NCBI GenBank assembly: GCA_964469225.1
Contig: CAYXYC010000002.1
Location: 1 to 35,689 of the forward strand
Direction: 5' to 3'
Length of the DNA: 35,689 nucleotides
From: an uncultured Candidatus Saccharibacteria bacterium
GTDB lineage: Bacteria > Patescibacteriota > Minisyncoccia > Phycocordibacterales > UBA9973
Within the stretch, counting starts at the first letter, position 1, and the number at the start of each line of letters is the position of its first letter. Made by a program: the position numbers and the translations under genes. The notes under the pieces were generated by a model, which saw only the letters and a program-made list of their open reading frames with translations, did not search any database and was not told where the DNA came from. This document shows, one piece after another, positions 2,784 through 33,724 of this stretch.

Positions 2784-4442
2784 ATGAAAAAAATTACTTC
2801 GTCACTAAAAATAGGAATTCTTGCAATCGTGCTTTCTTTTGGTGTTTCGTATGTGTTTGCTGATTGGAGTGCACCAACAGCAACAGCTCCAAATAACAAT
2901 GCTCCAACACCATTAAACGGCACAGCAACAGATCAAACAAAAGCAGGTAAATTAACAGCAGGAGGATTAGATGTTTCGACAGGAAAGACTTATCAGTACG
3001 AAGGTTCTGATATTATAAAAGGAAAAATATCAACAGGTAGTTTATTTTTTGGAAAAGATGCTGGAAATGTATCAGTTTCAGGAAGTAGCAATGTTGGTCT
3101 TGGACAAGAATCATTAAAATTCATTTCTTCTGGTAGTACAAATAGTGCTATTGGATACAGAAGTTTATATGCGAACACAACAGGTTCAGAAAATACCGCA
3201 CTTGGTGGATATGCACTTTATTTCAACACTTCTGGAGCTACGAATGTTGGTGTCGGCTCCGGATCTTTGTATACAAATACAGTAGGTTCAAACAATACTG
3301 CAATCGGAGTTTCTTCACTTCATAAAAATACTTCGGGAGTAGACAGTACGGCTGTTGGTCGTGAAGCGCTTTATTCAAATACAATCGGGGAAGAAAATGT
3401 CGGAGTAGGTTCATTTGCGTTGCGAGCGAACACAACAGGTTTTGCAAATACGGCTTTGGGTGTACACGCACTTCGATCAAACACAACAGCAACTGGTAAT
3501 ACTGCGGTTGGAAATGGGGCGTTGTATTGGAACACAACAGGCGCAGCAAACACGGCACTCGGTGTTTCTTCTTTAGGTCAAAACACGACAGGTACAAATA
3601 ATGTGGCAATTGGAATAAGTTCACTTGGACAAAATACATGGGGTTCAAACAATACAGCAATTGGTTATACTGCCCTGTTAAATAATATGGGCGGGTCAAA
3701 CAATGTTGCTGTGGGTCAAGACGCACTTCGTCAGAGTAAAACATCAAACAATACTGCTGTTGGTGTTGGTGCTTTGTCCCAGAATTCTGTGGGTGCAACA
3801 TCAATCACACAATCAGGAAATACTGCTGTTGGATATAATGCTCTTTCATCTGTTACAACTGGTTCAAATAATACTGCAATCGGTACTGGAGCAGATACTG
3901 GTGGAGGTAACGCAAGTACACTTACCAATGCAACGGCAATTGGATATAATGCCAAGGTTTTACTCAGTGACAGTATTAAACTTGGAAATAATAATGTAAC
4001 TTCTGTTATTACAACTGGCGCAATTACAAGTTCTCGTAACATTACTGGTTCACAAGGTTTTGATTGTCCGGGACAACTTTCGGGTTGTTATCGCGCATCA
4101 TCTGACTTTCGTTTGAAAAAAGATATTAAAGAAGACAATCTCGGTCTTGATTTCATTTTGAAATTGCGTCCAGTAACATTTAAATATAAGAAAGGCGCAG
4201 GTAACATTCTCAACGGTTTGATTGCGCAGGAGGTAGAGCAGGCACTCAAAGATCTCGGTACAAATTTCAGTGGACTCATTCGACCATCTCCAATCAATGA
4301 ATATTACAGTTTGGATTATAGTAACTTCGTTGTTCCTCTTATTAATGCAGTTCAAGATCAACAGAAAGAAATCAATGAATTAAAGGCAAAAAATGCTGAT
4401 TTTGAAGCACGATTGAAAGCCCTCGAGGCGAAATTAAGGTAA
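2784..4442 (+). CDS. secreted tail-fibre-like protein with 'NTA(I/V)G..AL..NT.G..N' repeats and a C-terminal peptidase S74 intramolecular-chaperone domain
   Basis: Signal peptide MKKITSSLKIGILAIVLSFGVSYVFA. More than 15 degenerate 'NTAxG' repeats. The C-terminus from nt 4098 reads 'SSDFRLKKDIKE..LRPVTFKYK..GLIAQEVEQ', matching the S74 'SD.R.K.NI ... F.Y ... G..AQE' pattern, followed by a short coiled-coil tail. Confidence 0.75.
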   Translation: MKKITSSLKIGILAIVLSFGVSYVFADWSAPTATAPNNNAPTPLNGTATDQTKAGKLTAGGLDVSTGKTYQYEGSDIIKGKISTGSLFFGKDAGNVSVSGSSNVGLGQESLKFISSGSTNSAIGYRSLYANTTGSENTALGGYALYFNTSGATNVGVGSGSLYTNTVGSNNTAIGVSSLHKNTSGVDSTAVGREALYSNTIGEENVGVGSFALRANTTGFANTALGVHALRSNTTATGNTAVGNGALYWNTTGAANTALGVSSLGQNTTGTNNVAIGISSLGQNTWGSNNTAIGYTALLNNMGGSNNVAVGQDALRQSKTSNNTAVGVGALSQNSVGATSITQSGNTAVGYNALSSVTTGSNNTAIGTGADTGGGNASTLTNATAIGYNAKVLLSDSIKLGNNNVTSVITTGAITSSRNITGSQGFDCPGQLSGCYRASSDFRLKKDIKEDNLGLDFILKLRPVTFKYKKGAGNILNGLIAQEVEQALKDLGTNFSGLIRPSPINEYYSLDYSNFVVPLINAVQDQQKEINELKAKNADFEARLKALEAKLR

Positions 4443-4535: not shown

Positions 4536-4736
4536 ATGAAAAATATTGATGAAGAGACCGCAAGGCGTCTCACCTTTCTTGAAAAAAATTTAAAAAATAA
4601 GCCATTCTATGCCTCACTCCTTTTATGGGGAAACAAAATAAAGGTTTCCATCAAGGATAGAGTTACTGGTGCTATCCAATGGATTGATACGGATAAGCCA
4701 GATTTAACAGAAAAAATACTGGAACAGGAACAGTAA
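4536..4736 (+). CDS. small hypothetical protein (66 aa)
   Basis: Only ORF between two terminators. No recognisable motif. Confidence 0.35.
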   Translation: MKNIDEETARRLTFLEKNLKNKPFYASLLLWGNKIKVSIKDRVTGAIQWIDTDKPDLTEKILEQEQ

Positions 4737-5475: not shown

Positions 5476-5507
5476 AAAGCCCTGTGAATGCAGGGCTTTA
5501 TTTTTTA
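5476..5507 (+). terminator. intrinsic terminator
   Basis: Stem aaagccctg/cagggcttt (5476-5484 / 5491-5499) followed by a T-run. Confidence 0.75.
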
Positions 5508-5556
5508 TTTAACAATCTCTACTTACTACTTTCTACTGACTACTTACTGTATTTAT

Positions 5557-6925: not shown

Positions 6926-7003
6926 TAGCCATTAGCAGTTAGTAATTAGCGACTAGCATTTAATGCTAGAAGCTAGATGCTATCGGCTAAAAGCTGTCCT
7001 ATC

Positions 7004-13466: not shown

Positions 13467-13553
13467 TTATCAGATGGTCGTGAGCAGAAAGTAATAAGAA
13501 CAAAAAATTAATTGTACTTACTACTAACTACTTACTACTAACTATTAAAATAT

Positions 13554-14154: not shown

Positions 14155-14694
14155 ATGGAAACAGTAAAGCAAAAAGAAAATAAGGCATTCAAAACACTTG
14201 GCGCAAAATATGGCTACAAGAATGTTATGGCTGCACCTCATCTTGTGAAGGTTGTTGTTTCTGTTGGTACTGGGTCAGCAATCAAGCGCGACAAGAATCG
14301 CAACACATTCATTATGGACCGTTTGGCGAAAATAACTGGACAGAAGCCGGCTACTCGTAAAGCAAAGAAATCAATTGCAAGTTTCAAGGTTCGTCAGGGT
14401 GATCAGATTGGTGTTATGGTCACACTTCGTGGTGCTCGTATGTACGGATTCCTCGAAAAGCTTATCAATGTTGCAATCCCTCGAACAAAGGACTTCCGTG
14501 GTATTGATCGCAAGATTGTTGATAATATCGGTAATATGACACTCTCAATCAAAGAACACACTATTTTCCCTGAAACAGGTGACGAAGAATTGAAAGATGT
14601 GTTTGGTCTCGGAGTAACAGTGGTTACAACAGCAAAGACTAAAGCAGAAGCTCTCGATTTTTTTGAACTCATTGGTGTTCCATTTAAAAAGTAA
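14155..14694 (+). CDS. rplE: 50S ribosomal protein L5
   Basis: 'F.VR.G..IG..VTLRG..MY.FL.KLI..A.PR..DFRG' L5 signature. Confidence 0.96.
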   Translation: METVKQKENKAFKTLGAKYGYKNVMAAPHLVKVVVSVGTGSAIKRDKNRNTFIMDRLAKITGQKPATRKAKKSIASFKVRQGDQIGVMVTLRGARMYGFLEKLINVAIPRTKDFRGIDRKIVDNIGNMTLSIKEHTIFPETGDEELKDVFGLGVTVVTTAKTKAEALDFFELIGVPFKK

Positions 14695-14703
14695 AATTAA
14701 TAT

Positions 14704-14729
14704 AAAAAATCCCCGAAAGGGGATTTTTT
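14704..14729. terminator. intrinsic terminator directly after rplE
   Basis: aaaaaatcccc / gaaa loop / ggggatttttt, a perfect 11-bp stem including the A and T tracts. Confidence 0.8.
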
Positions 14730-14755
14730 ATATTAGAAAATGATATACTTTTAAT

Positions 14756-15187
14756 ATGACAATATTAAGAGGTTTTGTATATTTACTCCTTGCTTCCCTT
14801 ATTTGTTTTGCAATCTATAAGTATTTTGCACTGGATACAAATCAGGATATTCAAGATTCGTTCAAGGAGGGGAATCTTACCAAGGCAGAACTGGCTATCC
14901 GTACAGTGATTTCAGAAAAACTGGCAAATGAGGCCAAGCAGTATCTCCATGATCACAATAATTACTTTGTTTCAAAATCTAATAACCTTTGTTTAAGCAC
15001 CAAGTCGCTTTTTACTGGGCTTGAGCAATTTACCTCAAATCCTGTCGAATGCGTAGCACAAGCTCACTCATTTACCGCTCGTATCAAGCGAGTCGGTTCT
15101 GACAGCTATTTCTGCGCTGATGCAAAAGGGTTTAATACTATTTCTGCAACAGAAGAGGGGTATGTGGCAGGGGTGAAGTGCAAATAA
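14756..15187 (+). CDS. membrane-anchored hypothetical protein (143 aa, Cys-containing ectodomain)
   Basis: N-terminal TM helix (GFVYLLLASLICFAIYKYF). First gene of the island inserted in the spc operon. Confidence 0.55.
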   Translation: MTILRGFVYLLLASLICFAIYKYFALDTNQDIQDSFKEGNLTKAELAIRTVISEKLANEAKQYLHDHNNYFVSKSNNLCLSTKSLFTGLEQFTSNPVECVAQAHSFTARIKRVGSDSYFCADAKGFNTISATEEGYVAGVKCK

Positions 15188-15195
15188 TCCTTCCG

Positions 15196-15222
15196 TTTCC
15201 CCTAGGTCCAACCTAGGGGAAA
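15196..15222 (+). repeat. REP-like palindrome, copy 1 (TTTCCCCTAGGTCCAACCTAGGGGAAA)
   Basis: 9-bp core stem cccctaggt/acctagggg with loop cca (core 15199-15219), flanked by TTT/AAA and then a T-run. Lies between the 14756 gene and the RAYT gene. Confidence 0.9.
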
Positions 15223-15248
15223 GTTTTTTATCTTGATATAATATTCAA

Positions 15249-15935
15249 ATGAGTTTGCGAGATAAAAATCTTGTGCCAGGTGAGTATTATCATATATATA
15301 ATCGTGGTAATGGAAAGAATATAATTTTTCATGATGATGAAGATTATCGACGTTTTACAAAACTCCTGTATCTTTGTAATTCAGAAAAGAAAATTAATTT
15401 TCGTGATTTAATTACAGACAACAAAATAGACACTTTTGATTTTGAAAGAGGTACCACTATTGTGTCTATTCTTGCGTGGGTTCTAATGCCTAATCATTTT
15501 CATCTAGTTCTTATTTCCCCTAGGTTGGACCTAGGGGAAGAAAAGGGTCAGAAATATAATTCAATTACTGAATTTATGAGAAAGATATCTACTTCTTATG
15601 CAATGTATTTTAATAAGAAATATAAAAGAACAGGGTCACTTTTTGAAGGTAATTTTAAGTCAAAACATATAGGCGAAGAAGGTTATTTTAATTATATTTT
15701 TTCTTATGTTCATTTGAATCCAATAAAACTAATTCAATCTGACTGGAAAGAACGTGGAATTATAAATGAACAAAAAGCATTGGATTATATAAACCATTTT
15801 CAGTATTCAAGTTTTATTGATTATTTTGGTGATTACCGGAAAGAATCAAAAATCCTTAATAAAGAATTTGTACCAGATTATTTAAAGATAAATCACGCAA
15901 AAGATATTTTTAATTGGATTAAAATATCTCATTAG
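15249..15935 (+). CDS. IS200/IS605-family Y1 (HUH) transposase, REP-associated tyrosine transposase (RAYT)-like
   Basis: 'YYHIYNRGN....IF.DD.DY..F' N-terminus, HUH motif 'MPNHFHLVL', 'GSLFEGNFKSKHI', and the catalytic Tyr region 'YVHLNPIK'. Flanked on both sides by the same palindrome. Confidence 0.8.
   Translation: MSLRDKNLVPGEYYHIYNRGNGKNIIFHDDEDYRRFTKLLYLCNSEKKINFRDLITDNKIDTFDFERGTTIVSILAWVLMPNHFHLVLISPRLDLGEEKGQKYNSITEFMRKISTSYAMYFNKKYKRTGSLFEGNFKSKHIGEEGYFNYIFSYVHLNPIKLIQSDWKERGIINEQKALDYINHFQYSSFIDYFGDYRKESKILNKEFVPDYLKINHAKDIFNWIKISH
15514..15539 (-). repeat. REP-like palindrome, copy 2 (inverted loop tgg), in-frame inside the RAYT CDS
   Basis: tttcccctaggttggacctaggggaa, core 15517-15537. 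Encodes S90-P-R-L-D-L-G-E97, five residues after the HUH histidines. Confidence 0.9.
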
Positions 15936-15962
15936 TTTCCCCTAGGTCCAACCTAGGGGAAA
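15936..15962 (+). repeat. REP-like palindrome, copy 3
   Basis: Identical 27-mer TTTCCCCTAGGTCCAACCTAGGGGAAA, starting 1 nt after the RAYT stop codon. Confidence 0.9.
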
Positions 15963-16015
15963 TATCCTGTATTGTATGACAGGTGATGCGAAGGTATTGG
16001 GATATTATGCGGTGC

Positions 16016-16043
16016 TTGACTTTTATTTTTAAAATGCTATAAT
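16016..16043 (+). promoter_or_regulatory. consensus promoter of the DGR target gene
   Basis: TTGACT (16016-16021), 16 nt, TGC-TATAAT (16038-16043). Confidence 0.65.
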
Positions 16044-16072
16044 ATAGCAAAATTTAAAAACAAAAGTCAGTT

Positions 16073-16585
16073 ATGAAAAAAGTTATGTTTCTTGTGCCAA
16101 TTATGGCATTCTTCCTTGCTTCCTGTGGAGGCGGTTCGTCTAACACAGTAGAAGATCTAGTGCTTCCTGTAACGGTTGATTATTCAAAATCAATCGAAAA
16201 AGCATTAGAAACTGGTCATTATGATTTCATTAATAAAGATATTTCATCAACCTCTTTCGCTAATGACAATAAAGACACAGTCATCACACTTGAGGCGACA
16301 TTGATCACTTTTAACAGGAGTATGGCTTCAGAAGATGTTGTGGCTCAATTAAAATCTCGTGGATTTCGTCCTGGTACAGCACGAGAACTTTATGCTCTTG
16401 GTGCACGCTATCCTCGACTTCAGAGAGAAATTTCTATTATTGCTCTTGGTTCAGTATCAGCGGCTTCCCACGTTCCCGGATTGTTTGAGGGTGTGGATGG
16501 TGATCGGGATGCGTATCTTTGGTTTTGGTCTGATGTTTGGAGTTCTGAGTACTGGTTTCTGGCTTTCCGCGACAGCACTTTGTAA
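16073..16585 (+). CDS. surface lipoprotein, putative DGR variable (target) protein with C-terminal variable region
   Basis: Lipobox FFLASC|GGGSS. The last ~40 aa (AASHVPGLFEGVDGDRDAYLWFWSDVWSSEYWFLAFR) are encoded by the VR. W/Y/G/D-rich C-terminus as in C-type-lectin-fold DGR targets (fold is inference). Confidence 0.8.
   Translation: MKKVMFLVPIMAFFLASCGGGSSNTVEDLVLPVTVDYSKSIEKALETGHYDFINKDISSTSFANDNKDTVITLEATLITFNRSMASEDVVAQLKSRGFRPGTARELYALGARYPRLQREISIIALGSVSAASHVPGLFEGVDGDRDAYLWFWSDVWSSEYWFLAFRDSTL
16460..16570 (+). repeat. DGR variable repeat (VR), codons 130-166 of the lipoprotein gene
   Basis: 111 nt aligning without gaps to 16904-17014. 97 identities and 14 mismatches, all at positions where the other copy has A. 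Confidence 0.85.
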
Positions 16586-16903
16586 CTTTGTATTTGTCTT
16601 AACAAAGATCCTTTGATTCTTTTGCACTTTGCACTTGGATTAAAGGGTTTTTTCTTTTATACTTACTATGAGAGTAGGAAAGTTGTGTACGGTTACGGCT
16701 TTACACCCCGAAATCAGAATCTCACTATCGAGAGCGTGGTCGGATATGTCTTACTGCGGAGTGATTTTGATGTATTCTTAATAAAAAAATAATATGTCGG
16801 TGTATATATCTGGTTGATTTTGAAATCACAAATAAAATACAGCATGATTCTTGAGATATATAATTCTTGAATCGGCAGTGTCACAGATGGGTATATACAC
16901 AAA

Positions 16904-17014
16904 GCGGATTCCCACGTTCCCGAATTGTATGAGAATGTGAATGGTAATCGGAATGCGAATCTTTGGAATTGGTCTGATGATTGGAATTCTGAGTACTGGT
17001 TTCTGGCTTTCCGA
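16904..17014 (+). repeat. DGR template repeat (TR), non-coding
   Basis: Same orientation as the VR. The reading frame matching the VR has a TGA at 16868-16870 and no start codon after it. Carries 6 AAT codons plus GAT/GAA/TAT codons whose A residues are the only variable positions. Confidence 0.85.
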
Positions 17015-17032
17015 TACACACTATTTTCTTCC

Positions 17033-17077
17033 CCCACCTTTCCCCTAGGTCCAACCTAGGGGAAAGGTGGGTTTTTT
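17033..17077 (+). repeat. REP-like palindrome, copy 4, extended to an 18-bp stem plus T-run (terminator-like), 18 nt downstream of the TR
   Basis: cccacctttcccctaggt / cca / acctaggggaaaggtggg, followed by tttttt. Confidence 0.9.
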
Positions 17078-17098
17078 ATCTTTAATGACAATTTATAG

Positions 17099-17127
17099 TT
17101 GACATCCAAACTCCTATCTGATAGGAT
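17099..17127 (+). promoter_or_regulatory. promoter restarting the spc operon at rpsN
   Basis: TTGACA (17099-17104), 17 nt, TAGGAT (17122-17127). Leaves a leader of about 160 nt before rpsN. Confidence 0.5.
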
Positions 17128-17294
17128 AGTGGAACGTAAGTTGTAGATCCGTTCTCCTCCTTAAGTATCTGAAAAATAAAGGTATTTAAGAAAAAGAACG
17201 AGATATCCTTCTTATGAAATTAGTGGGGTTATTTTTATGGCTCCCCGCCTTTGGCGGGATGCTCATAAATTATAGTCGCTCTGCTCCTTAATTT

Positions 17295-17480
17295 ATGGCA
17301 AAAACATCAGTAATTGCAAGACATTTAAAGAAGTCAAAGTTTAGCACACGAGAAACAAATCGTTGTTTTCGTTGTGGTCGTGGACATGCCTACATGCGTG
17401 ATTTCGGGCTTTGTCGTATCTGTTTCCGTGAACTCGCTAACGAGGGTATGCTCCCAGGAGTTCGCAAGTCATCTTGGTAA
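17295..17480 (+). CDS. rpsN: 30S ribosomal protein S14, zinc-binding type Z (61 aa)
   Basis: 'CFRCGR...[12 protein letters not shown]' with CxxC..CxxC, and 'GV.K.SW' C-terminus. Confidence 0.96.
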
Positions 17481-17523
17481 TCCTTTCTACTAACTACTAT
17501 CTACTTACTACTAACTATTTCAT

Positions 17524-17919: not shown

Positions 17920-18456
17920 ATGTCACGAATCGGAAAACAAATTATCACTGCTCCTAATGGTACCGAGATTTCACTCTCTGGCACAGTTTTTACTGTGAAA
18001 GGCCCAAAAGGGACACTTACTCGCGATTTCCCGGGTGATATTACTATTGCTATTAATGGTAGCGAAGTAACATGCACACCGACTCGTGAAGGTGATCGTA
18101 CATTGAACGCTCTCTGGGGTACATACGCATCACATATCAAAAACATGGTTACTGGTGTGAATGAAGGATTTTCAAAGAAACTTATTCTTGAAGGAGTTGG
18201 TTTCAAATCAGATGTTGCAGGTAGTACACTAAATCTAGCACTCGGATTTTCACATCCAGTAAAGGTTGAAATCCCAGCTGGACTTACTGTTACTGCTGAA
18301 AAGAACAATATTACCGTTACAGGAATTGATAAGGAGCTCGTTGGTTCATTTACTGCATCTGTTCGTGCTCTCAAAAAACCAGAACCATACAAAGGTAAAG
18401 GTTTCCGATATTCTGATGAAGTTATCCGTCGTAAGCAGGGTAAGAAGGCAGCATAA
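17920..18456 (+). CDS. rplF: 50S ribosomal protein L6
   Basis: 'MSRIGK..I..P.G' N-terminus and 'PEPYKGKG.RY..E...RK.GK' C-terminus. Confidence 0.96.
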   Translation: MSRIGKQIITAPNGTEISLSGTVFTVKGPKGTLTRDFPGDITIAINGSEVTCTPTREGDRTLNALWGTYASHIKNMVTGVNEGFSKKLILEGVGFKSDVAGSTLNLALGFSHPVKVEIPAGLTVTAEKNNITVTGIDKELVGSFTASVRALKKPEPYKGKGFRYSDEVIRRKQGKKAA

Positions 18457-18501
18457 TATAGCCCTTAGCTACTAGCAGTTAGCCATTAGCAAAAAACATA
18501 T

Positions 18502-18843
18502 ATGAACAAGAAAAAAGAAAAACGAATACGATTAAAGAAAAAGATTCGCGCAAAGGTGAATGGTACTTCAGAATGTCCTCGTCTTTCAGTCTTTCGTTCA
18601 AACCAATTTATCTATGCCCAGATTATTGATGATATAAAAGGTGTTACACTCGTATCAGCATCTGATATGAATATTAAAAAAGGCGCAAAGACAGAACGCG
18701 CAATTGCTGTTGGTACTGAAATAGCAAAACTTGCAAGTACAAAAGGTGTAACAAAAGTTGTTTTTGATCGCAATGGTTTCAAATACACTGGTCGCGTAAA
18801 ATCTCTCGCTGATGGTGCACGCGCTGGCGGATTACAATTTTAA
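18502..18843 (+). CDS. rplR: 50S ribosomal protein L18
   Basis: '[17 protein letters not shown]' and 'FDR.G..Y.GR.K.LAD.AR..GL.F'. Confidence 0.95.
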
Positions 18844-21894: not shown

Positions 21895-21936
21895 TCTCAT
21901 TGCATTTCAATCTTTTTTCGCATAGTATGCGGATGT

Positions 21937-22185
21937 ATGGCAATTATAATTAAAACCCCAAAGGAAAATATCTCGCCTAAATACGCTCGATATTTCCTAC
22001 GGGGCGAGAAGTAATGTTACCGATTACTGAGTAACTGTGCCTTGTTGTGAAGTATATAAATATGGCAATAATAATTAAAACCCCAAAGGAAAATATCTCG
22101 CCTAAATACGCTCGATATTTCCTACGGGGCGAGAAGTAGTATTGCCGATTACTAAGTATTTGTGCTTTTTGTGTAGTATATAGAT
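21937..22185 (+). repeat. two tandem ~125-nt copies of the map 5' end plus upstream region, each carrying an identical 25-codon micro-ORF
   Basis: Units 21937-22061 and 22062-22185 each begin ATGGCAAT(T/A)ATAATTAAAACCCCAAAGGAAAA, as the real map start at 22186 does. Micro-ORFs 21937-22014 and 22062-22139 both encode MAIIIKTPKENISPKYARYFLRGEK. Confidence 0.85.
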
Positions 22186-22953
22186 ATGGCGATTATAATT
22201 AAAACCCCAGAAGAAATAACAATTTTGCGTGAAGGCGGTAAACGCCTCGCGACTATTTTAGCGAAAGTGGCAGAGATGGTTAAGCCAGGTGTTTCAACAC
22301 TTGAACTCGACCAATATGCTTATAAACTTATTATTGATGGTGGTGATGAGCCGGCCTTTCTTGGTTATAAACCAGAGGGTCATCGAAAAGGATTTCCAGC
22401 ATCGCTCTGCACTTCGGTAAACAATGAAGTTGTTCATGGTATTCCTCACAAGGATAAAATTCTCAAGGAGGGTGATATTATCTGTATTGACCTCGGATTG
22501 AAACACAAGGGTCTTTTTACTGATCATGCAATCACCGTTCCAGTTGGGTCAGTTTCAAAAGAATCTATTTCGCTAATTAACATAACCCGCACAGCACTTG
22601 CCGAAGGTATTGCTGTTGCGTGCGCTGGTAATACAACCGGTGATATTGGGCATGCCATAGAATCATTTGTGAGTAAACGATATGGTATCGTGCGTGAACT
22701 CTCAGGGCACGGTGTCGGGAAATATATTCACGAAGATCCTTATGTGCCCAATTATGGTAAGCCAGGGAAAGGCGTGCGACTTGTCCCAGGGATGGTTATC
22801 GCGATTGAGCCAATGCTAAACATCGGAAGAGAAGACATTGTAAGCGATAAAGATGGTTATACGATAAAAACAGCCGATGGCTCACGAAGTTCACACTTTG
22901 AACATACCGTGCTAATCACCGAGAACGGGCCAGAAATTTTAACTCTTAAATAA
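22186..22953 (+). CDS. map: type I methionine aminopeptidase
   Basis: 'VVHGIP', 'D..ICIDLG', 'GHG.G' and 'IEPM' metal-ligand motifs. Full-length 255 aa. Confidence 0.96.
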   Translation: MAIIIKTPEEITILREGGKRLATILAKVAEMVKPGVSTLELDQYAYKLIIDGGDEPAFLGYKPEGHRKGFPASLCTSVNNEVVHGIPHKDKILKEGDIICIDLGLKHKGLFTDHAITVPVGSVSKESISLINITRTALAEGIAVACAGNTTGDIGHAIESFVSKRYGIVRELSGHGVGKYIHEDPYVPNYGKPGKGVRLVPGMVIAIEPMLNIGREDIVSDKDGYTIKTADGSRSSHFEHTVLITENGPEILTLK

Positions 22954-29492: not shown

Positions 29493-30401
29493 ATGAAAAA
29501 TTCATTTTTTACATTTATTAAAACTCATTGGTCACGAATACTTTCAGTTGCATTTTTTGTCTTCTTAAGTGGTGTCTACATGTATATTTTTGCTGTTGGT
29601 CCGTTTGCACCAGGAGAAAAACTTGATCCAGAATGTCGCCCAACAGATAGTGGTTGTACGGTTGATCTTGGTTTAACCTATACAAATTCAACTCCAACTC
29701 TTTCTGCTATTGGTGGTGTTTCAGCTGGTTCAACATTTAGTGGAAAAACTCTCCAAGAAATGTTTGATGATTTACTGTACCCATACACTGTTCCTACTAT
29801 TACTCTTTCCGTTTCTCCTTCCGCTGGTCTTCGTGAATTTGGTAATGATGTGACAAGTGTTGACTTAACAGCAACAACAACAAAACAATCCGATACGCTT
29901 ACCTCAGTAGTTTTCAAACGCGACGGAGTTGCTATTGATACAAATACGCCTCCAGCATCACCAGCAGGTGGAACAGAGACATATACCGAACCAACAGATG
30001 TTACAACTACAACAACATTCACGGCAACAGTAAATGACGGTACAACAGTTGTTACTTCAAATAGTCAGACATATACATTTGTATATGCTTATTACTACGG
30101 TGTCGGGGCACAAGGTCTTACCGGTGCGCAAATTGCAGGATTAACAAAGTCCGTTATTGGAAATACTTCTTCGGTGGCATTTACTTCATCTCCAAGTAGT
30201 CAGGTATTTTATTTCGCTTACCCCGCATCATACCCAGCTCTCACTTCTATTCTTGATAATAGTGGGTTCCAAACAATAGCTGATTACACAGTAAGTACGA
30301 CATCAATTACAAATGCTTATGGACAATCAACAACATACAGAGTGTATGAATATAACAATGTAACAACACAAACATCATTTACTAATACATTCATTCAATA
30401 A
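29493..30401 (+). CDS. membrane-anchored Thr-rich extracellular protein (302 aa)
   Basis: N-terminal TM helix (ILSVAFFVFLSGVYMYIFAV). Its stop overlaps the start of the next gene by 1 nt (TAATG), implying co-translation with the fibre protein. Confidence 0.6.
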   Translation: MKNSFFTFIKTHWSRILSVAFFVFLSGVYMYIFAVGPFAPGEKLDPECRPTDSGCTVDLGLTYTNSTPTLSAIGGVSAGSTFSGKTLQEMFDDLLYPYTVPTITLSVSPSAGLREFGNDVTSVDLTATTTKQSDTLTSVVFKRDGVAIDTNTPPASPAGGTETYTEPTDVTTTTTFTATVNDGTTVVTSNSQTYTFVYAYYYGVGAQGLTGAQIAGLTKSVIGNTSSVAFTSSPSSQVFYFAYPASYPALTSILDNSGFQTIADYTVSTTSITNAYGQSTTYRVYEYNNVTTQTSFTNTFIQ

Positions 30402-33322
30402 TGCGTAAATCAATTATCGTCACTAGAATATTCACTATTTTTGCAATCATAGGATTGCTCGGTGGATTTGCGTATCAAGTTTTTGCTGCGATCCCACTCG
30501 GTTCGAATTTTCAATTAAACTCTCAACTTCCTCTTGATGCACGAAGTGTTGCAACAACAATCACAACTAGAAATGCAATTTCTTCAGGTTCTCGGTATGA
30601 AGGTATGGTTGTTTATGTTATTGATTCTGATGGCGCTGGTAATCCAGCAACCTATCAATTACAAAATGGTATTACCAACAGCGACTGGGTAGAATTTGGA
30701 AGTGGTGCTGGGTCGGGGACAGTGACATCAGTTTCAGTGAGTACAGCCAATGGTGTTTCTGGTTCGGTTGCGAACAATACCACAACTCCTGCAATTACAC
30801 TTACGCTTGGTGCTATTACTCCTTCAAGTGTAAATGGTCTAACTCTAACTGCAGGCGGAACTGGGTTTTCAATAGCAGGAGGAACAACATCAAAGACACT
30901 TACTGTTTCTAATACTCTCACACTTGCGGGGACTGATAGCTCAACACTTAACATTGGTGCTGGGGGAACACTTGGTACAGGAGCGTTTGCTGCGCTTGGT
31001 GCAACGCGTGCTCTCGATAACCTTGCATCTGTTGCTATAAACACTTCTCTTATTTCAGATACTGACAATACAGATGCTCTAGGTTCTGCTACAATCGGTT
31101 GGTCAGATCTCTTTTTAGGTAACGGGTCAGTGATTACATGGTCAACAGCACCTTCGACTTCTGATCTTACACTTACTCATTCATCAAATGCCCTTACTCT
31201 TGCTGGTGGTTCACTTGTTCTTCCGAATGCTGGTCTTACTGTTGGTGCATCAGTTCCATTTAGTGATTCATCAGGAACACTTACACTTCAAAATGTTGAT
31301 GTACTTGATACAACAACAGAGGGAACTATTGAAGGGGCTATTGATACACTTGATAACTTGAATCGGATTCAGACACGCACTGTCTTGTTTGGCGGAGATT
31401 TCTCTACTGCCGGTGCGTTTACTACCGCTGGTGCATTTGCTCTTACTCTTACATCAACAGCCACAACAAATGTCACCTTGCCGACATCAGGAACACTTTA
31501 TGGCACGGCAACCGGCTCAATAACTTCATCCCAGCTTGCTACATCTCTCACAGACGAGACAGGTTCTGGGCTCGCAGTTTTTGACACTACTCCAACATTC
31601 ACTACAAACATAACTGCACCACTTGTTATTGGTGGTACAGGAACTACTTCGACGCTTACTTTCAAAACGACTTCAGGTGTAGGTACAACAAATGCCGACA
31701 TGATTTTCCAAGTTGGGAATGATGGTGCGACCGAAGCCATGCGTATTTTAAATAGTGGAAGTATCGGTATCGGCACCGCAAGCCCTTCATCGAAGTTAGA
31801 TATTACGACGAATACTTTAAACCAAACACAAACAACATCTTCTGGGTTAGCGCTTGTAAACACAACTGCGGCAGTAACTAATACACAACAAGTTTCCCCA
31901 GCAATAAGATGGCATGGAAGTGGATGGAGAGGTGCAACCTCTGCTGCTGTTGATTTTGATTTTCGTTCTTATGTTACTCCAGTTAAAACAACAGGAATTA
32001 GTTCAACCGCTTATCTTGGCTTTGGTTCATCAGTTGCAGGAGGAACATATAATGATGGTCAATTCATAATTAACTCTCTTGGAAATGTTGCAGTTGGAAC
32101 AGTAACACCAGTTGGATTATTCCAAGTAACACAACCAGGTATTGGTCCTGGTGTTGCTTCAACAACAGCTTCAAGTACAACAGTAAGTGGCATACATACT
32201 AATTTTCTAAATTCATTTAGAATCGGAGACACAATTACTATCAATGGAGAAACACGAACTATTTCAGCAATTGCTGGCAATGAATCAATGACAACAGATG
32301 CATGGACAGCTACAAACACTGACGCTAGTTATTCTGTTGGTAATACTGGTAGCCGTTTTATTATTAAGGGAAATGGATTTATGGGTACCAACTCAACTGA
32401 TATTACCGCCCGTCTGGATATCCAAGAGAATTATGGTTCTGGTAATGGTGCAGGATTGGGTTATGTGGCGAAATTCTTTAATGACGGTAATAATGCTGAT
32501 AGATTAGGTTTACAGGTACAAGCAGGAGAGGATTCCGGTACTGGAACACTCATACAATTCAGAGACGGAGATGGTACTGATGTTGGTGAGATTACTTTCT
32601 CTGGTACAACTGCTACATACGGTACAAGTTCAGATCGTCGTATGAAGGATAATATTATAGATACAAGGTACACCTTACAAGATCTTCTAAACATACAAGT
32701 TCGAGATTATACTTTCAATACGGAAAATTCTGGTCGTGTATATACTGGTTTCATTGCGCAGGATTTGAAAAATATTTATCCTGATGCTGTGTTTGCTCCT
32801 GATGATGGTATTACTGCAAACAATCCAAAGATGTGGTCTGTTGATTATGGAAAGATTACTCCTTTGATTGTTAAATCAATTCAGGATTTAAATCTTAAAA
32901 TCGAAGGGTTTAAATCTCTCAACCCTGATGAACCAGAATCACTCGGTTCACTTATCAAACAATTCCTCGCTGATAATATTCTTGCTATTAAAGAACTTAC
33001 CGCTTCCGTTCTCCGTATTAATGGCGAAGTTTGTGTAGACGATGTCTGTGTAACCAAAGACCAATTCAAAGCACTCTTGCAGAGTGCCGGTGGAACATCA
33101 AATCTCGTAAGTCCTCCAGCAGATTCTGGAACGGGCGGAGGTATCGATGTGGGAACTGGAGGAGATGTAACTACTGGCGAAGACCAATCTTCTGGCAGTA
33201 CAGAAACTCCTCCCTCTGATGTTTCTGGCGGAAGTGGTACCGATATACCTCCAGCAGATGGAGGGTCAAGCACAACAGATACTCCACCAGCCGATATTCC
33301 TCAAGCAGAACCTCAAATATAA
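30401..33322 (+). CDS. large secreted tail-fibre-like protein (973 aa) with a peptidase S74 intramolecular-chaperone domain and a P/G/T/S-rich C-terminal tail
   Basis: Signal/anchor IFTIFAIIGLLGGFAYQVFA. 'GSIGIGTASPSSKLDI' fibre motif. From nt 32627 'SSDRRMKDNIID..VRDYTF..GFIAQDL', an S74 pattern. Low-complexity tail from about 33100 to 33322. Confidence 0.75.
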   Translation: MRKSIIVTRIFTIFAIIGLLGGFAYQVFAAIPLGSNFQLNSQLPLDARSVATTITTRNAISSGSRYEGMVVYVIDSDGAGNPATYQLQNGITNSDWVEFGSGAGSGTVTSVSVSTANGVSGSVANNTTTPAITLTLGAITPSSVNGLTLTAGGTGFSIAGGTTSKTLTVSNTLTLAGTDSSTLNIGAGGTLGTGAFAALGATRALDNLASVAINTSLISDTDNTDALGSATIGWSDLFLGNGSVITWSTAPSTSDLTLTHSSNALTLAGGSLVLPNAGLTVGASVPFSDSSGTLTLQNVDVLDTTTEGTIEGAIDTLDNLNRIQTRTVLFGGDFSTAGAFTTAGAFALTLTSTATTNVTLPTSGTLYGTATGSITSSQLATSLTDETGSGLAVFDTTPTFTTNITAPLVIGGTGTTSTLTFKTTSGVGTTNADMIFQVGNDGATEAMRILNSGSIGIGTASPSSKLDITTNTLNQTQTTSSGLALVNTTAAVTNTQQVSPAIRWHGSGWRGATSAAVDFDFRSYVTPVKTTGISSTAYLGFGSSVAGGTYNDGQFIINSLGNVAVGTVTPVGLFQVTQPGIGPGVASTTASSTTVSGIHTNFLNSFRIGDTITINGETRTISAIAGNESMTTDAWTATNTDASYSVGNTGSRFIIKGNGFMGTNSTDITARLDIQENYGSGNGAGLGYVAKFFNDGNNADRLGLQVQAGEDSGTGTLIQFRDGDGTDVGEITFSGTTATYGTSSDRRMKDNIIDTRYTLQDLLNIQVRDYTFNTENSGRVYTGFIAQDLKNIYPDAVFAPDDGITANNPKMWSVDYGKITPLIVKSIQDLNLKIEGFKSLNPDEPESLGSLIKQFLADNILAIKELTASVLRINGEVCVDDVCVTKDQFKALLQSAGGTSNLVSPPADSGTGGGIDVGTGGDVTTGEDQSSGSTETPPSDVSGGSGTDIPPADGGSSTTDTPPADIPQAEPQI

Positions 33323-33355
33323 AAATTCCCCTAGGTTGGACCTAGGGGAATTTTT
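33321..33355 (-). repeat. REP-like palindrome, copy 5 (loop tgg), acting as bidirectional terminator between the fibre gene and rplT
   Basis: aaaaattcccctaggttggacctaggggaattttt. Core 33328-33348 is identical to copy 2, and the A5/T5 flanks extend the stem. Confidence 0.9.
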
Positions 33356-33379
33356 ATTCTACTTACCACTAACTACTTT

Positions 33380-33724
33380 CTACTTACTAGCATTAGCAAT
33401 ACGAGCGAATGTTTCAGGATTGTGTTCTGCGATATCAGCTAGTATCTTTCGGTCAAGACCGATGTTTTTCTTTTTGAGTGAATCCATAAATCGGCTGTAT
33501 GATATTTCAAATGGACGAATTGCTGCGTTAATACGAAGTGTCCATACTTTTCGTGCATCTGCTTTCTTGTCTCTGCGGTGAGCAAATGCGTATGCTCCTG
33601 CGTGATGGATTGCTTCTTTTGCGGCTGCTTCTTTGTTCTTGCGTCCAAAACGGAAACCTTTTGTTTGAGCAAGGGTATTCTTGCGTCTCTTGTTTTTGAT
33701 AACTCCTCGTTTTACTCGTGTCAT
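33380..33724 (-). CDS. rplT: 50S ribosomal protein L20
   Basis: 'MTRVKRGV...RRK..L...KGF.G' and 'A..YA..HRR.KK...R..W..RINAA'. Confidence 0.96.
   Translation of the reverse strand: MTRVKRGVIKNKRRKNTLAQTKGFRFGRKNKEAAAKEAIHHAGAYAFAHRRDKKADARKVWTLRINAAIRPFEISYSRFMDSLKKKNIGLDRKILADIAEHNPETFARIANASK

Follow-up and report, generated by a model that had tools for sequence, protein, structure and literature searches.

The 35,689-nt window analysed here (contig CAYXYC010000002.1 of an uncultured Candidatus Saccharibacteria bacterium) contains the target gene and the template-RNA gene of a Patescibacteria-type diversity-generating retroelement (DGR). The 3′ end of a lipoprotein gene forms a variable repeat (VR) that differs from a non-coding template repeat (TR) lying downstream only at adenines of the template, and it is close to certain that DGR-type mutagenic retrohoming from this TR produced the VR. 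An earlier note on this DNA had read the two repeats as a TR/VR pair, a reading upheld by the adenine-only mismatches, the location of the VR at the 3′ end of its gene, the non-coding nature of the TR, the membership of the target in a family found in canonical DGR cassettes and a structured RNA shared with those cassettes. The reverse transcriptase (RT) and the Avd protein are missing from the surrounding sequence. All positions are window coordinates; other loci compared are labelled L0xx and orthologous proteins P0xxx.

Adenine-specific differences between the two repeats

The earlier note had aligned 16460–16570 with 16904–17014 by eye. Computed alignment reproduces an ungapped pair of 111 columns with 14 mismatches, in the very columns that the note had listed, and in each of them the downstream copy has A where the gene copy has G (seven), T (five) or C (two). 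The downstream copy contains 25 A among its 111 bases, of which 11 are unchanged; mismatches at its C, G or T positions, the pattern that would speak against a template, were looked for and there are none. The hypergeometric probability that all 14 mismatches fall on A is 2.1e-11, smaller still than the order of 1e-9 estimated by eye. The homology itself thus stands as described, but its limits are displaced by one nucleotide: the true extent is 16459–16569 against 16903–17013, with an extra matching A at the 5′ end. Column 111 (C against A, position 16570) is directly followed by a G/T mismatch and therefore represents the edge of the homology and no safe A-to-N event. Accordingly, 13 of the 14 differences are safe, all 13 at template A (P = 9.4e-11, hypergeometric), and none of the 86 non-A template sites differs between TR and VR. 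The two repeats are defined as follows:

16459..16569, + strand: variable repeat (VR), last 37 codons of the target gene (codons 130–166 within the 170-codon open reading frame (ORF) 16073–16585), with 13 A-to-N differences and the ambiguous position 16570
16903..17013, + strand: template repeat (TR), non-coding, with 24 A and seven AAT codons in the frame of the VR

The TR starts 444 nt downstream of the start of the VR and has no coding context, with an in-frame stop 12 codons upstream and no gene similarity upstream of 16903. All seven AAT codons of the template are changed in the gene copy; the earlier note had counted six, at odds with its own list of amino-acid changes, which contains seven changes of N. 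The mismatches are restricted to codon positions 1 and 2 of AAT, GAT, GAA and TAT codons, and in such an AAY-rich template mutagenesis of A cannot create stop codons. At its 3′ end the homology is lost abruptly (CGC GAC against CGA TAC). This loss, together with a conserved hairpin further downstream, recalls the IMH/IMH*-type boundary that had been proposed, but a GC-rich initiation of mutagenic homing (IMH) element is not evident and the likeness goes no further than resemblance. The same locus is present with identical VR and TR in L001, an independent assembly of the same strain (ENA ERZ4216102 NODE_7087), which excludes an assembly artefact. The 90% identity cluster of the target protein has a single member, and L001 is the only other assembly that carries it, with the identical VR.

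Target gene and predicted structure of its product

The target gene is framed by a promoter and a hairpin:

16016..16043, + strand: sigma-70-type promoter of the target gene, TTGACT-16-TATAAT with extended TG, 11/12 match
16073..16585, + strand: target (variable protein) gene, 170 aa, lipoprotein signal peptide, unannotated Patescibacteria family
16608..16648, + strand: hairpin followed by a T-run, 23 nt past the stop codon of the target, intrinsic-terminator-like

Both the consensus promoter and the lipobox that had been reported from the sequence are present, the latter as LASC (L15-A16-S17-C18, with the Cys18 codon at 16124–16126), and the proposed surface display of a lipoprotein fits the lipobox. 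The promoter block is also conserved upstream of the orthologous genes in L025 and L004. In L002, L004 and L025 a hairpin of near-identical sequence lies behind the orthologue, and in L007 another one stands at the corresponding site. The hairpin of the window resembles an intrinsic terminator and possibly acts as a DGR target-site hairpin as well.

The target protein has no sequence match in Pfam, NCBIfam or the PDB, and among Pfam families matches neither FGE-sulfatase nor CLec. A profile search with its orthologues nevertheless delineates a family of 4120 clusters at 50% identity, composed of proteins of 140–220 aa that are sometimes encoded in tandem. In the family alignment the C-terminal ~37 residues consist of scaffold positions (G, R, VP, L, W, W, RFLAVRK) alternating with fully variable ones. 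With more than 4000 clusters at 50% identity and neither a Pfam nor an NCBIfam model, this family represents a major group of surface or binding proteins that lack annotation and are potentially hypervariable. Patescibacteria are ultra-small and are thought to live attached to other cells.

An AlphaFold2 model of the target, computed with 116 family members as input, is confident, with a pLDDT of 87.6, and the VR region corresponds to its last three strands. Variable residues 136, 138, 140, 142, 144, 146 and 148 alternate on a predicted β-hairpin (E133–139/E145–151), and this i,i+2 spacing would place them on one face. The earlier note had called for structure prediction as a check for a C-type-lectin fold. 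Foldseek top lists for the PDB and BFVD consist mostly of C-type lectin domains, but the matches are weak and none reaches significance (in the PDB, E>=0.4 and TM of no more than 0.50 when normalised to the target; BFVD, E 0.05–0.35). A C-type-lectin-like fold of the target is plausible and weakly supported.

Canonical cassettes and the structured RNA upstream of the TR

The orthologue profile retrieves the targets of two canonical cassettes, whose VRs show the same pattern of scaffold and variable positions. L023, a JGI metagenome contig, carries two family genes in tandem and a TR, together with a bAvd gene on the reverse strand and an RVT_1 gene, and its mismatches fall at TR-A in 17 of 17 cases for VR2 and 15 of 18 for VR1. 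L041, an IMG/VR contig, is arranged as target, TR, (avd) and RT, with all 22 mismatches at A. The distance between VR start and TR start is 488 nt and 491 nt in these two loci, against 444 nt in the window.

The region between target and TR in the window is organized in two parts:

16662..16795, + strand: pre-TR non-coding RNA, 5′ half, with hairpin 16685–16706; RNAalifold helices 1–5, weakly conserved
16794..16903, + strand: pre-TR structured RNA, 3′ domain; closing helix around two hairpins, with covariation, model R1

The spacers that separate target terminator and TR (~250 nt) are related. Local alignment of L041 with L023 gives z = 10.9 despite very different GC content, and the window spacer aligns with that of L041 at z = 6.0 (0/300 shuffles); window and L023 alone give a marginal result (29/500 and 3/300 shuffles) that becomes convincing only once L041 is added. 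RNAalifold applied to the three spacers predicts 8 helices with 56 pairs. In this consensus structure 92.8% of the paired cells are paired, against 31–46% when the 3′ partners are slid by 1–3 columns, and 28 pairs are changed on both sides, against 0–8 in the slid controls; no column shuffle (0/500) matches the observed values, which come from the same three sequences, and only three, from which the structure was derived.

The most prominent element is the closing helix of the 3′ domain, formed by 12 bp between 16800–16811 and 16889–16900, which stops 3 nt short of the TR in the window. Its pairing is perfect in the window and in both L023 and L041, although the sequences largely differ, and its distance to the TR is 3–4 nt across the three loci. 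In the window this helix and an adjacent 5-bp hairpin are intact. Covariance models were built for the 3′ domain (R1) and the 5′ half (R2) from L041 and L023 only, the window being excluded. R1 finds its best window match at 16794–16904 on the + strand with 35.6 bits (E 2.7e-7), the second-best match reaching 17.5 bits, and in 337 kb of other loci it has no match at E<=0.01 besides the training cassettes. The top window match of R2, 16662–16795, lies in the expected place, but with 11.3 bits and E 1.2 it is not significant. Homology of the pre-TR RNA with that of the canonical cassettes is hence firmly established for the 3′ domain, whereas for the 5′ half it stays below significance. Rfam, at gathering and at relaxed thresholds, has no relevant family for the window, L023 or L041. 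A minimum-free-energy pairing of 16677–16692 with the 3′ flank of the TR, which would form a duplex like that of Bordetella phage BPP-1, was discarded: it conflicts with the covarying helix 3 and is unsupported in L023 and L041.

A 7-nt direct repeat, TTTTCTT, at 16650–16656 and 17024–17030 brackets the structured RNA and the TR. The bracketed segment is exactly what the orthologous cassettes of L004 and L025 lack, and the repeat may be the footprint of a deletion or an insertion, for which it is weak evidence.

Genomic setting

The window is a chromosomal piece of a Patescibacteria genome, Paceibacteria-like to judge by the sources of the orthologues, and encodes tuf, secY, adk and map as well as the S10-spc ribosomal protein cluster, among others. 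rplE and rpsN are normally neighbours; here the gap between them is filled, and the target and TR lie inside the filling. The relevant features are:

14695..17294, no strand assigned: variable island of 2.6 kb between rplE (14155–14694) and rpsN (17295–17480); genomic context, not shown as a DGR mechanism
15199–15219, 15517–15537 (− strand), 15939–15959, 17042–17062 and 33328–33348 (− strand): palindrome copies in the window, four of them inside the rplE–rpsN island
17033..17071, + strand: 18-bp hairpin and T-run, 19 nt past the TR, whose core is the palindrome CCCCTAGGTCCAACCTAGGGG, similar to repetitive extragenic palindromic (REP) elements

The island comprises a 143-aa ORF, a gene resembling REP-associated tyrosine transposases (RAYT) at 15249–15935, four REP-like palindromes and the cassette of target and TR, which is bracketed by the palindromes and adjoins the RAYT-like gene. 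In relatives with an identical S14 protein (L031–L040) the rplE–rpsN gap holds unrelated cargo, for example HicA with a phosphatase, a cyclodipeptide synthase with a SIS protein, or unrelated hypothetical genes, which marks this gap as a gene-turnover hot spot.

The perfect 21-nt palindrome occurs in five copies in the window, where none is expected by chance. It is also present at L004 10596–10616 and L025 ~4626–4648, after the terminator of the orthologous target gene, and its loop is inverted between these two syntenic loci, a REP-like behaviour. The proposal that an RT-free module is ancestral, suggested by the REP elements that follow orthologous cassettes, was not retained, since their orientation differs between L004 and L025 and independent insertion is equally likely. 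The clustering of four palindromes around a gene with weak Y1_Tnp and REP_Tyr_transpos similarity is reminiscent of REP/RAYT systems. Unlike in such systems, both scores of the RAYT-like ORF remain under the curated cut-offs (Y1_Tnp, 22 bits, cut-off 23; REP_Tyr_transpos, 40.8 bits, cut-off 80) and one palindrome lies inside the ORF, where it is read in frame (~aa 89–97, SPRLDLGEE) directly after an HUH-like motif, HFHLV. The REP/RAYT elements may provide the context for how the cassette moved, a link to DGR function not being shown.

The missing reverse transcriptase and the alternative explanations

A number of observations weigh against a DGR that still operates here. The window contains no RT or Avd, not even as a fragment, as judged from the list of ORFs and from Pfam searches of the unassigned ones (RVT_1; bAvd, PF22296), an absence on which the earlier note did not remark. 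Exact-protein look-ups extend the locus by 9.3 kb on the right (L010) and 2.4 kb on the left (L012), and neither the L023 RT nor its Avd has a tblastn match at E<=0.01 in the window, L010 or L012, so that ~48 kb around the locus (the window and 11.7 kb of flank) are free of both genes. Genes flanking the locus in this strain also occur in SRR12487046 and SRR12487035. In L023 and L041 the (avd)-RT directly follows the TR, whereas in the window its place is held by the hairpin at 17033–17071, followed by a promoter and rpsN; a REP-like palindrome at this very position, near a RAYT-like gene, has the look of a rearrangement scar. A search of the window for a promoter of the template RNA gave no convincing candidate. 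The remaining points come from the seven orthologues of the target (42–78% identity, from other Paceibacteria), whose promoter-gene-hairpin unit occupies five genomic neighbourhoods in five lineages. None of these neighbourhoods has an RT within 10 kb, and the four lineages with DNA (the fifth, P0005, being without) contain neither a TR, by repeat search and diagonal scan, nor the pre-TR RNA. Ten contigs from at least six samples carry one and the same P0004 VR, and P0007 varies solely outside the hypervariable codons. Losses of TR and RNA combined with invariant VRs imply that loss of DGR activity is common in this clade.

The orthologous VRs differ from the window TR mainly at template-A positions and at synonymous third positions, which indicates that they were once written from a similar template; the closest orthologue with DNA shows 9 non-A differences from the window TR, and these VRs look frozen today. 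Loci with only a VR seem common for the target family. In L022 (10001–11681) and L020 (10001–10639) single or tandem members stand among housekeeping and defence genes (type I restriction–modification, CBASS-like), with no TR or RT within 4–10 kb. Scans of GTDB genomes, JGI metagenomes and IMG/VR, collections that do not contain this organism, with an A-free pattern of the TR/VR 3′ end yielded no second TR and no RT-adjacent TR. They returned only the VRs of two orthologues, both in species-representative metagenome-assembled genomes and without a TR, and one chance match, from the IMG/VR motif scan, inside a helicase gene (L042). Nothing points to a phage origin among 50,697 phage records, in which tblastn had no match.

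Since no RT or Avd lies within ~48 kb, the enzyme most likely has its gene elsewhere in the genome and acts in trans; this split DGR is the preferred explanation, with chances that are about evenly balanced. It is favoured by the 0/86 non-A differences, the intact AAT design and outer helices, and the established action of avd, TR and brt in trans. An RNA spanning ~16650–17075 (structured domain, TR and 3′ hairpin) would be bound by the DGR RT–Avd complex, and the TR would be copied to cDNA, bases being inserted at random opposite A. This would recode seven Asn codons along with three or four more, on one face of the C-terminal β-hairpin of a presumed surface-anchored binding protein. The alternative of a recently orphaned DGR, judged somewhat short of an even chance, holds that a canonical target-TR-(avd)-RT ancestor lost avd and RT, for example by a REP/RAYT-associated rearrangement or by copying into the rplE–rpsN island without them, that the VR is now a frozen allele and that VR, TR and RNA domain are intact only because little time has elapsed. 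It accounts for the ~48 kb devoid of RT and Avd, for a REP-like palindrome 19 nt past the TR, at the very point at which L023 and L041 have the start of (avd)-RT, and for the insertion in a gene-turnover hot spot, and it agrees with the further decayed orthologues, which lack TR and RNA, have VRs frozen across samples and, in the two species-representative genomes, gave a VR only. However, the absence of non-A differences and the intact seven AAT codons and outer helices, which place the last homing event recently relative to species divergence, also bound any such loss as recent (95%: <~3.5% divergence). It also counts against an orphan that Patescibacteria genomes typically measure 0.6–1 Mb, of which ~92–95% is unseen here.

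Two further explanations deny the downstream copy the role of template. That the downstream copy is a second, decayed VR or a gene fragment whose true TR lies elsewhere might be suggested by the tandem paralogues of the family, the VRs of which resemble each other in L022 and L023. It is nonetheless very improbable and contradicted by the data: two VRs would each carry random bases, whereas one copy here has A at the 13–14 differing sites and at 11 further ones; no ORF or gene similarity precedes 16903, the frame being closed by a stop 12 codons upstream; and the RNA domain in front of the copy is one that in canonical cassettes is found before TRs and not before VRs. Least probable of all is an ordinary segmental duplication with chance or compositional divergence, or an assembly artefact. 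The genome is AT-rich (GC content 39%), and drift of a non-coding copy toward A/T would be expected, but the changes include T-to-A and C-to-A equivalents and none toward T. The probability of ~1e-10 that every mismatch would hit an A of the same copy, the confinement of the mismatches to codon positions 1 and 2 of four codon types (AAT, GAT, GAA, TAT), the agreement of two independent assemblies and the same design in the canonical DGRs of the family likewise argue against it.

Comparison with known DGRs

Patescibacteria DGRs are well known and correspond to DGR clade 2 of Roux et al. 2021 (PMC5758913; PMC8144416), and with DGRs abundant in this group a TR/VR pair is by itself unsurprising. 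Wu et al. 2018 reported that 90% of the DGRs of the candidate phyla radiation (CPR) have a TR-(avd)-RT ‘B3' architecture and that five CPR DGRs are interleaved with ribosomal protein genes (PMC5758913). Avd is present in ~74% of DGRs and in most CPR DGRs. The window locus shares with the B3 DGRs L023 and L041 the target family, the C-terminal segment used as VR, an AAY-rich TR with A-only mismatches, a TR located ~320–370 nt downstream of the target and a covarying RNA directly 5′ of the TR. It differs in that no avd-RT stands behind the TR, where a REP-like palindrome and terminator are found instead.

Precedents for action at a distance exist: avd, TR and brt function in trans from a plasmid, TR and RT can occupy different strands, and remote targets lie up to Mb away, including seven in Treponema (PMC5758913). 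All described architectures have the RT within ~10 kb of the TR. RT-anchored pipelines scan ~10 kb around the RT (PMC6602519), and Roux et al. state that their survey misses remote targets (PMC8144416). An RT-less arrangement of target and template RNA occurs in none of the 48 catalogued cassette architectures and is invisible to RT-anchored finders; should the RT act in trans, both DGRs and hypervariable genes are being undercounted in these lineages. With respect to the literature searched, the novel aspects are a template-RNA gene and target detached from RT and Avd, the size of the anonymous target family and the covarying RNA that abuts the TR.

Like the DGR of BPP-1 (mtd-avd-TR-brt; Handa et al., PMC6182149), the locus displays the traces of adenine-specific mutagenic retrohoming from a TR to a 3′-terminal VR, has structured RNA on the flanks of the template, with a stable duplex lying just a few nucleotides 5′ of the TR, and shows a hairpin beyond the VR. 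In BPP-1 the RNA flanking the TR is required and envelops RT–Avd, and cDNA synthesis is physically halted by a duplex located a few nucleotides 5′ of the TR (bioRxiv 10.1101/2023.10.23.563531). The 12-bp closing helix is, by its position, a candidate equivalent of this stop duplex. The covarying RNA with this helix 3–4 nt from the TR offers a testable Patescibacteria counterpart of the BPP-1 RNA elements controlling priming and termination; Handa et al. looked at only 40 nt upstream of TRs. The topology is distinct, however. The BPP-1 stop duplex forms between upstream avd sequence and the downstream spacer, whereas both strands of the window helix are upstream of the TR, around an 80–90-nt two-hairpin domain. 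The window also differs by the lack of a GC-rich IMH, by a bacterial lipoprotein target in place of a phage tail fibre and by the absence of RT and Avd in cis.

Legionella LdtA and Treponema TvpA are cellular lipoprotein targets of DGRs. Their systems resemble the present one in a lipobox-bearing target with a C-terminal VR and in DGR components that act on sites far from the RT. Unlike in the window, their TR stays beside the RT and only additional VRs are remote, whereas here TR and RNA scaffold sit with the target, away from any RT, and the match of the target to C-type lectins is weak.

A broader and tentative view, to which less weight is given, is that Patescibacteria carry portable RT-less cassettes, made of promoter, lipoprotein gene, hairpin, structured RNA and TR, that are served in trans. 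The RT–Avd would then come from another place in the genome or from a co-resident element, and the ~100–240 nt RNA domain would serve as a docking and stop element through which the RNA recruits the enzyme, of a build unlike the avd:Sp duplex of the Bordetella phage. Surveys that start from the RT would miss such cassettes systematically. The contrast with the orthologues, which have lost TR and RNA and retain frozen VRs, offers a natural series for the study of DGR decay.

Other features of the window

Pyrimidine-rich repeats of the CTACTnACTAC type are located at 5503–5551, 13512–13546, 17485–17519 and 33357–33391, and related TAGC-rich repeats at 6926–6962 and 18445–18502. Both types fill short spacers just upstream of several ribosomal-protein starts, where no obvious Shine–Dalgarno sequence is seen. 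At 21916–22216 three tandem copies of ~125 nt each contain the first ~30 nt of the coding sequence of map (methionine aminopeptidase) and a hairpin-containing leader, and the third alone runs on into the gene. Large repeat-rich secreted or surface proteins, with 79-aa and NTAxG-type repeats, are encoded at 796–2151, 2784–4442 and 29493–33322; two have a Peptidase_S74-like intramolecular chaperone domain at their end, of the kind seen in phage tail fibres.

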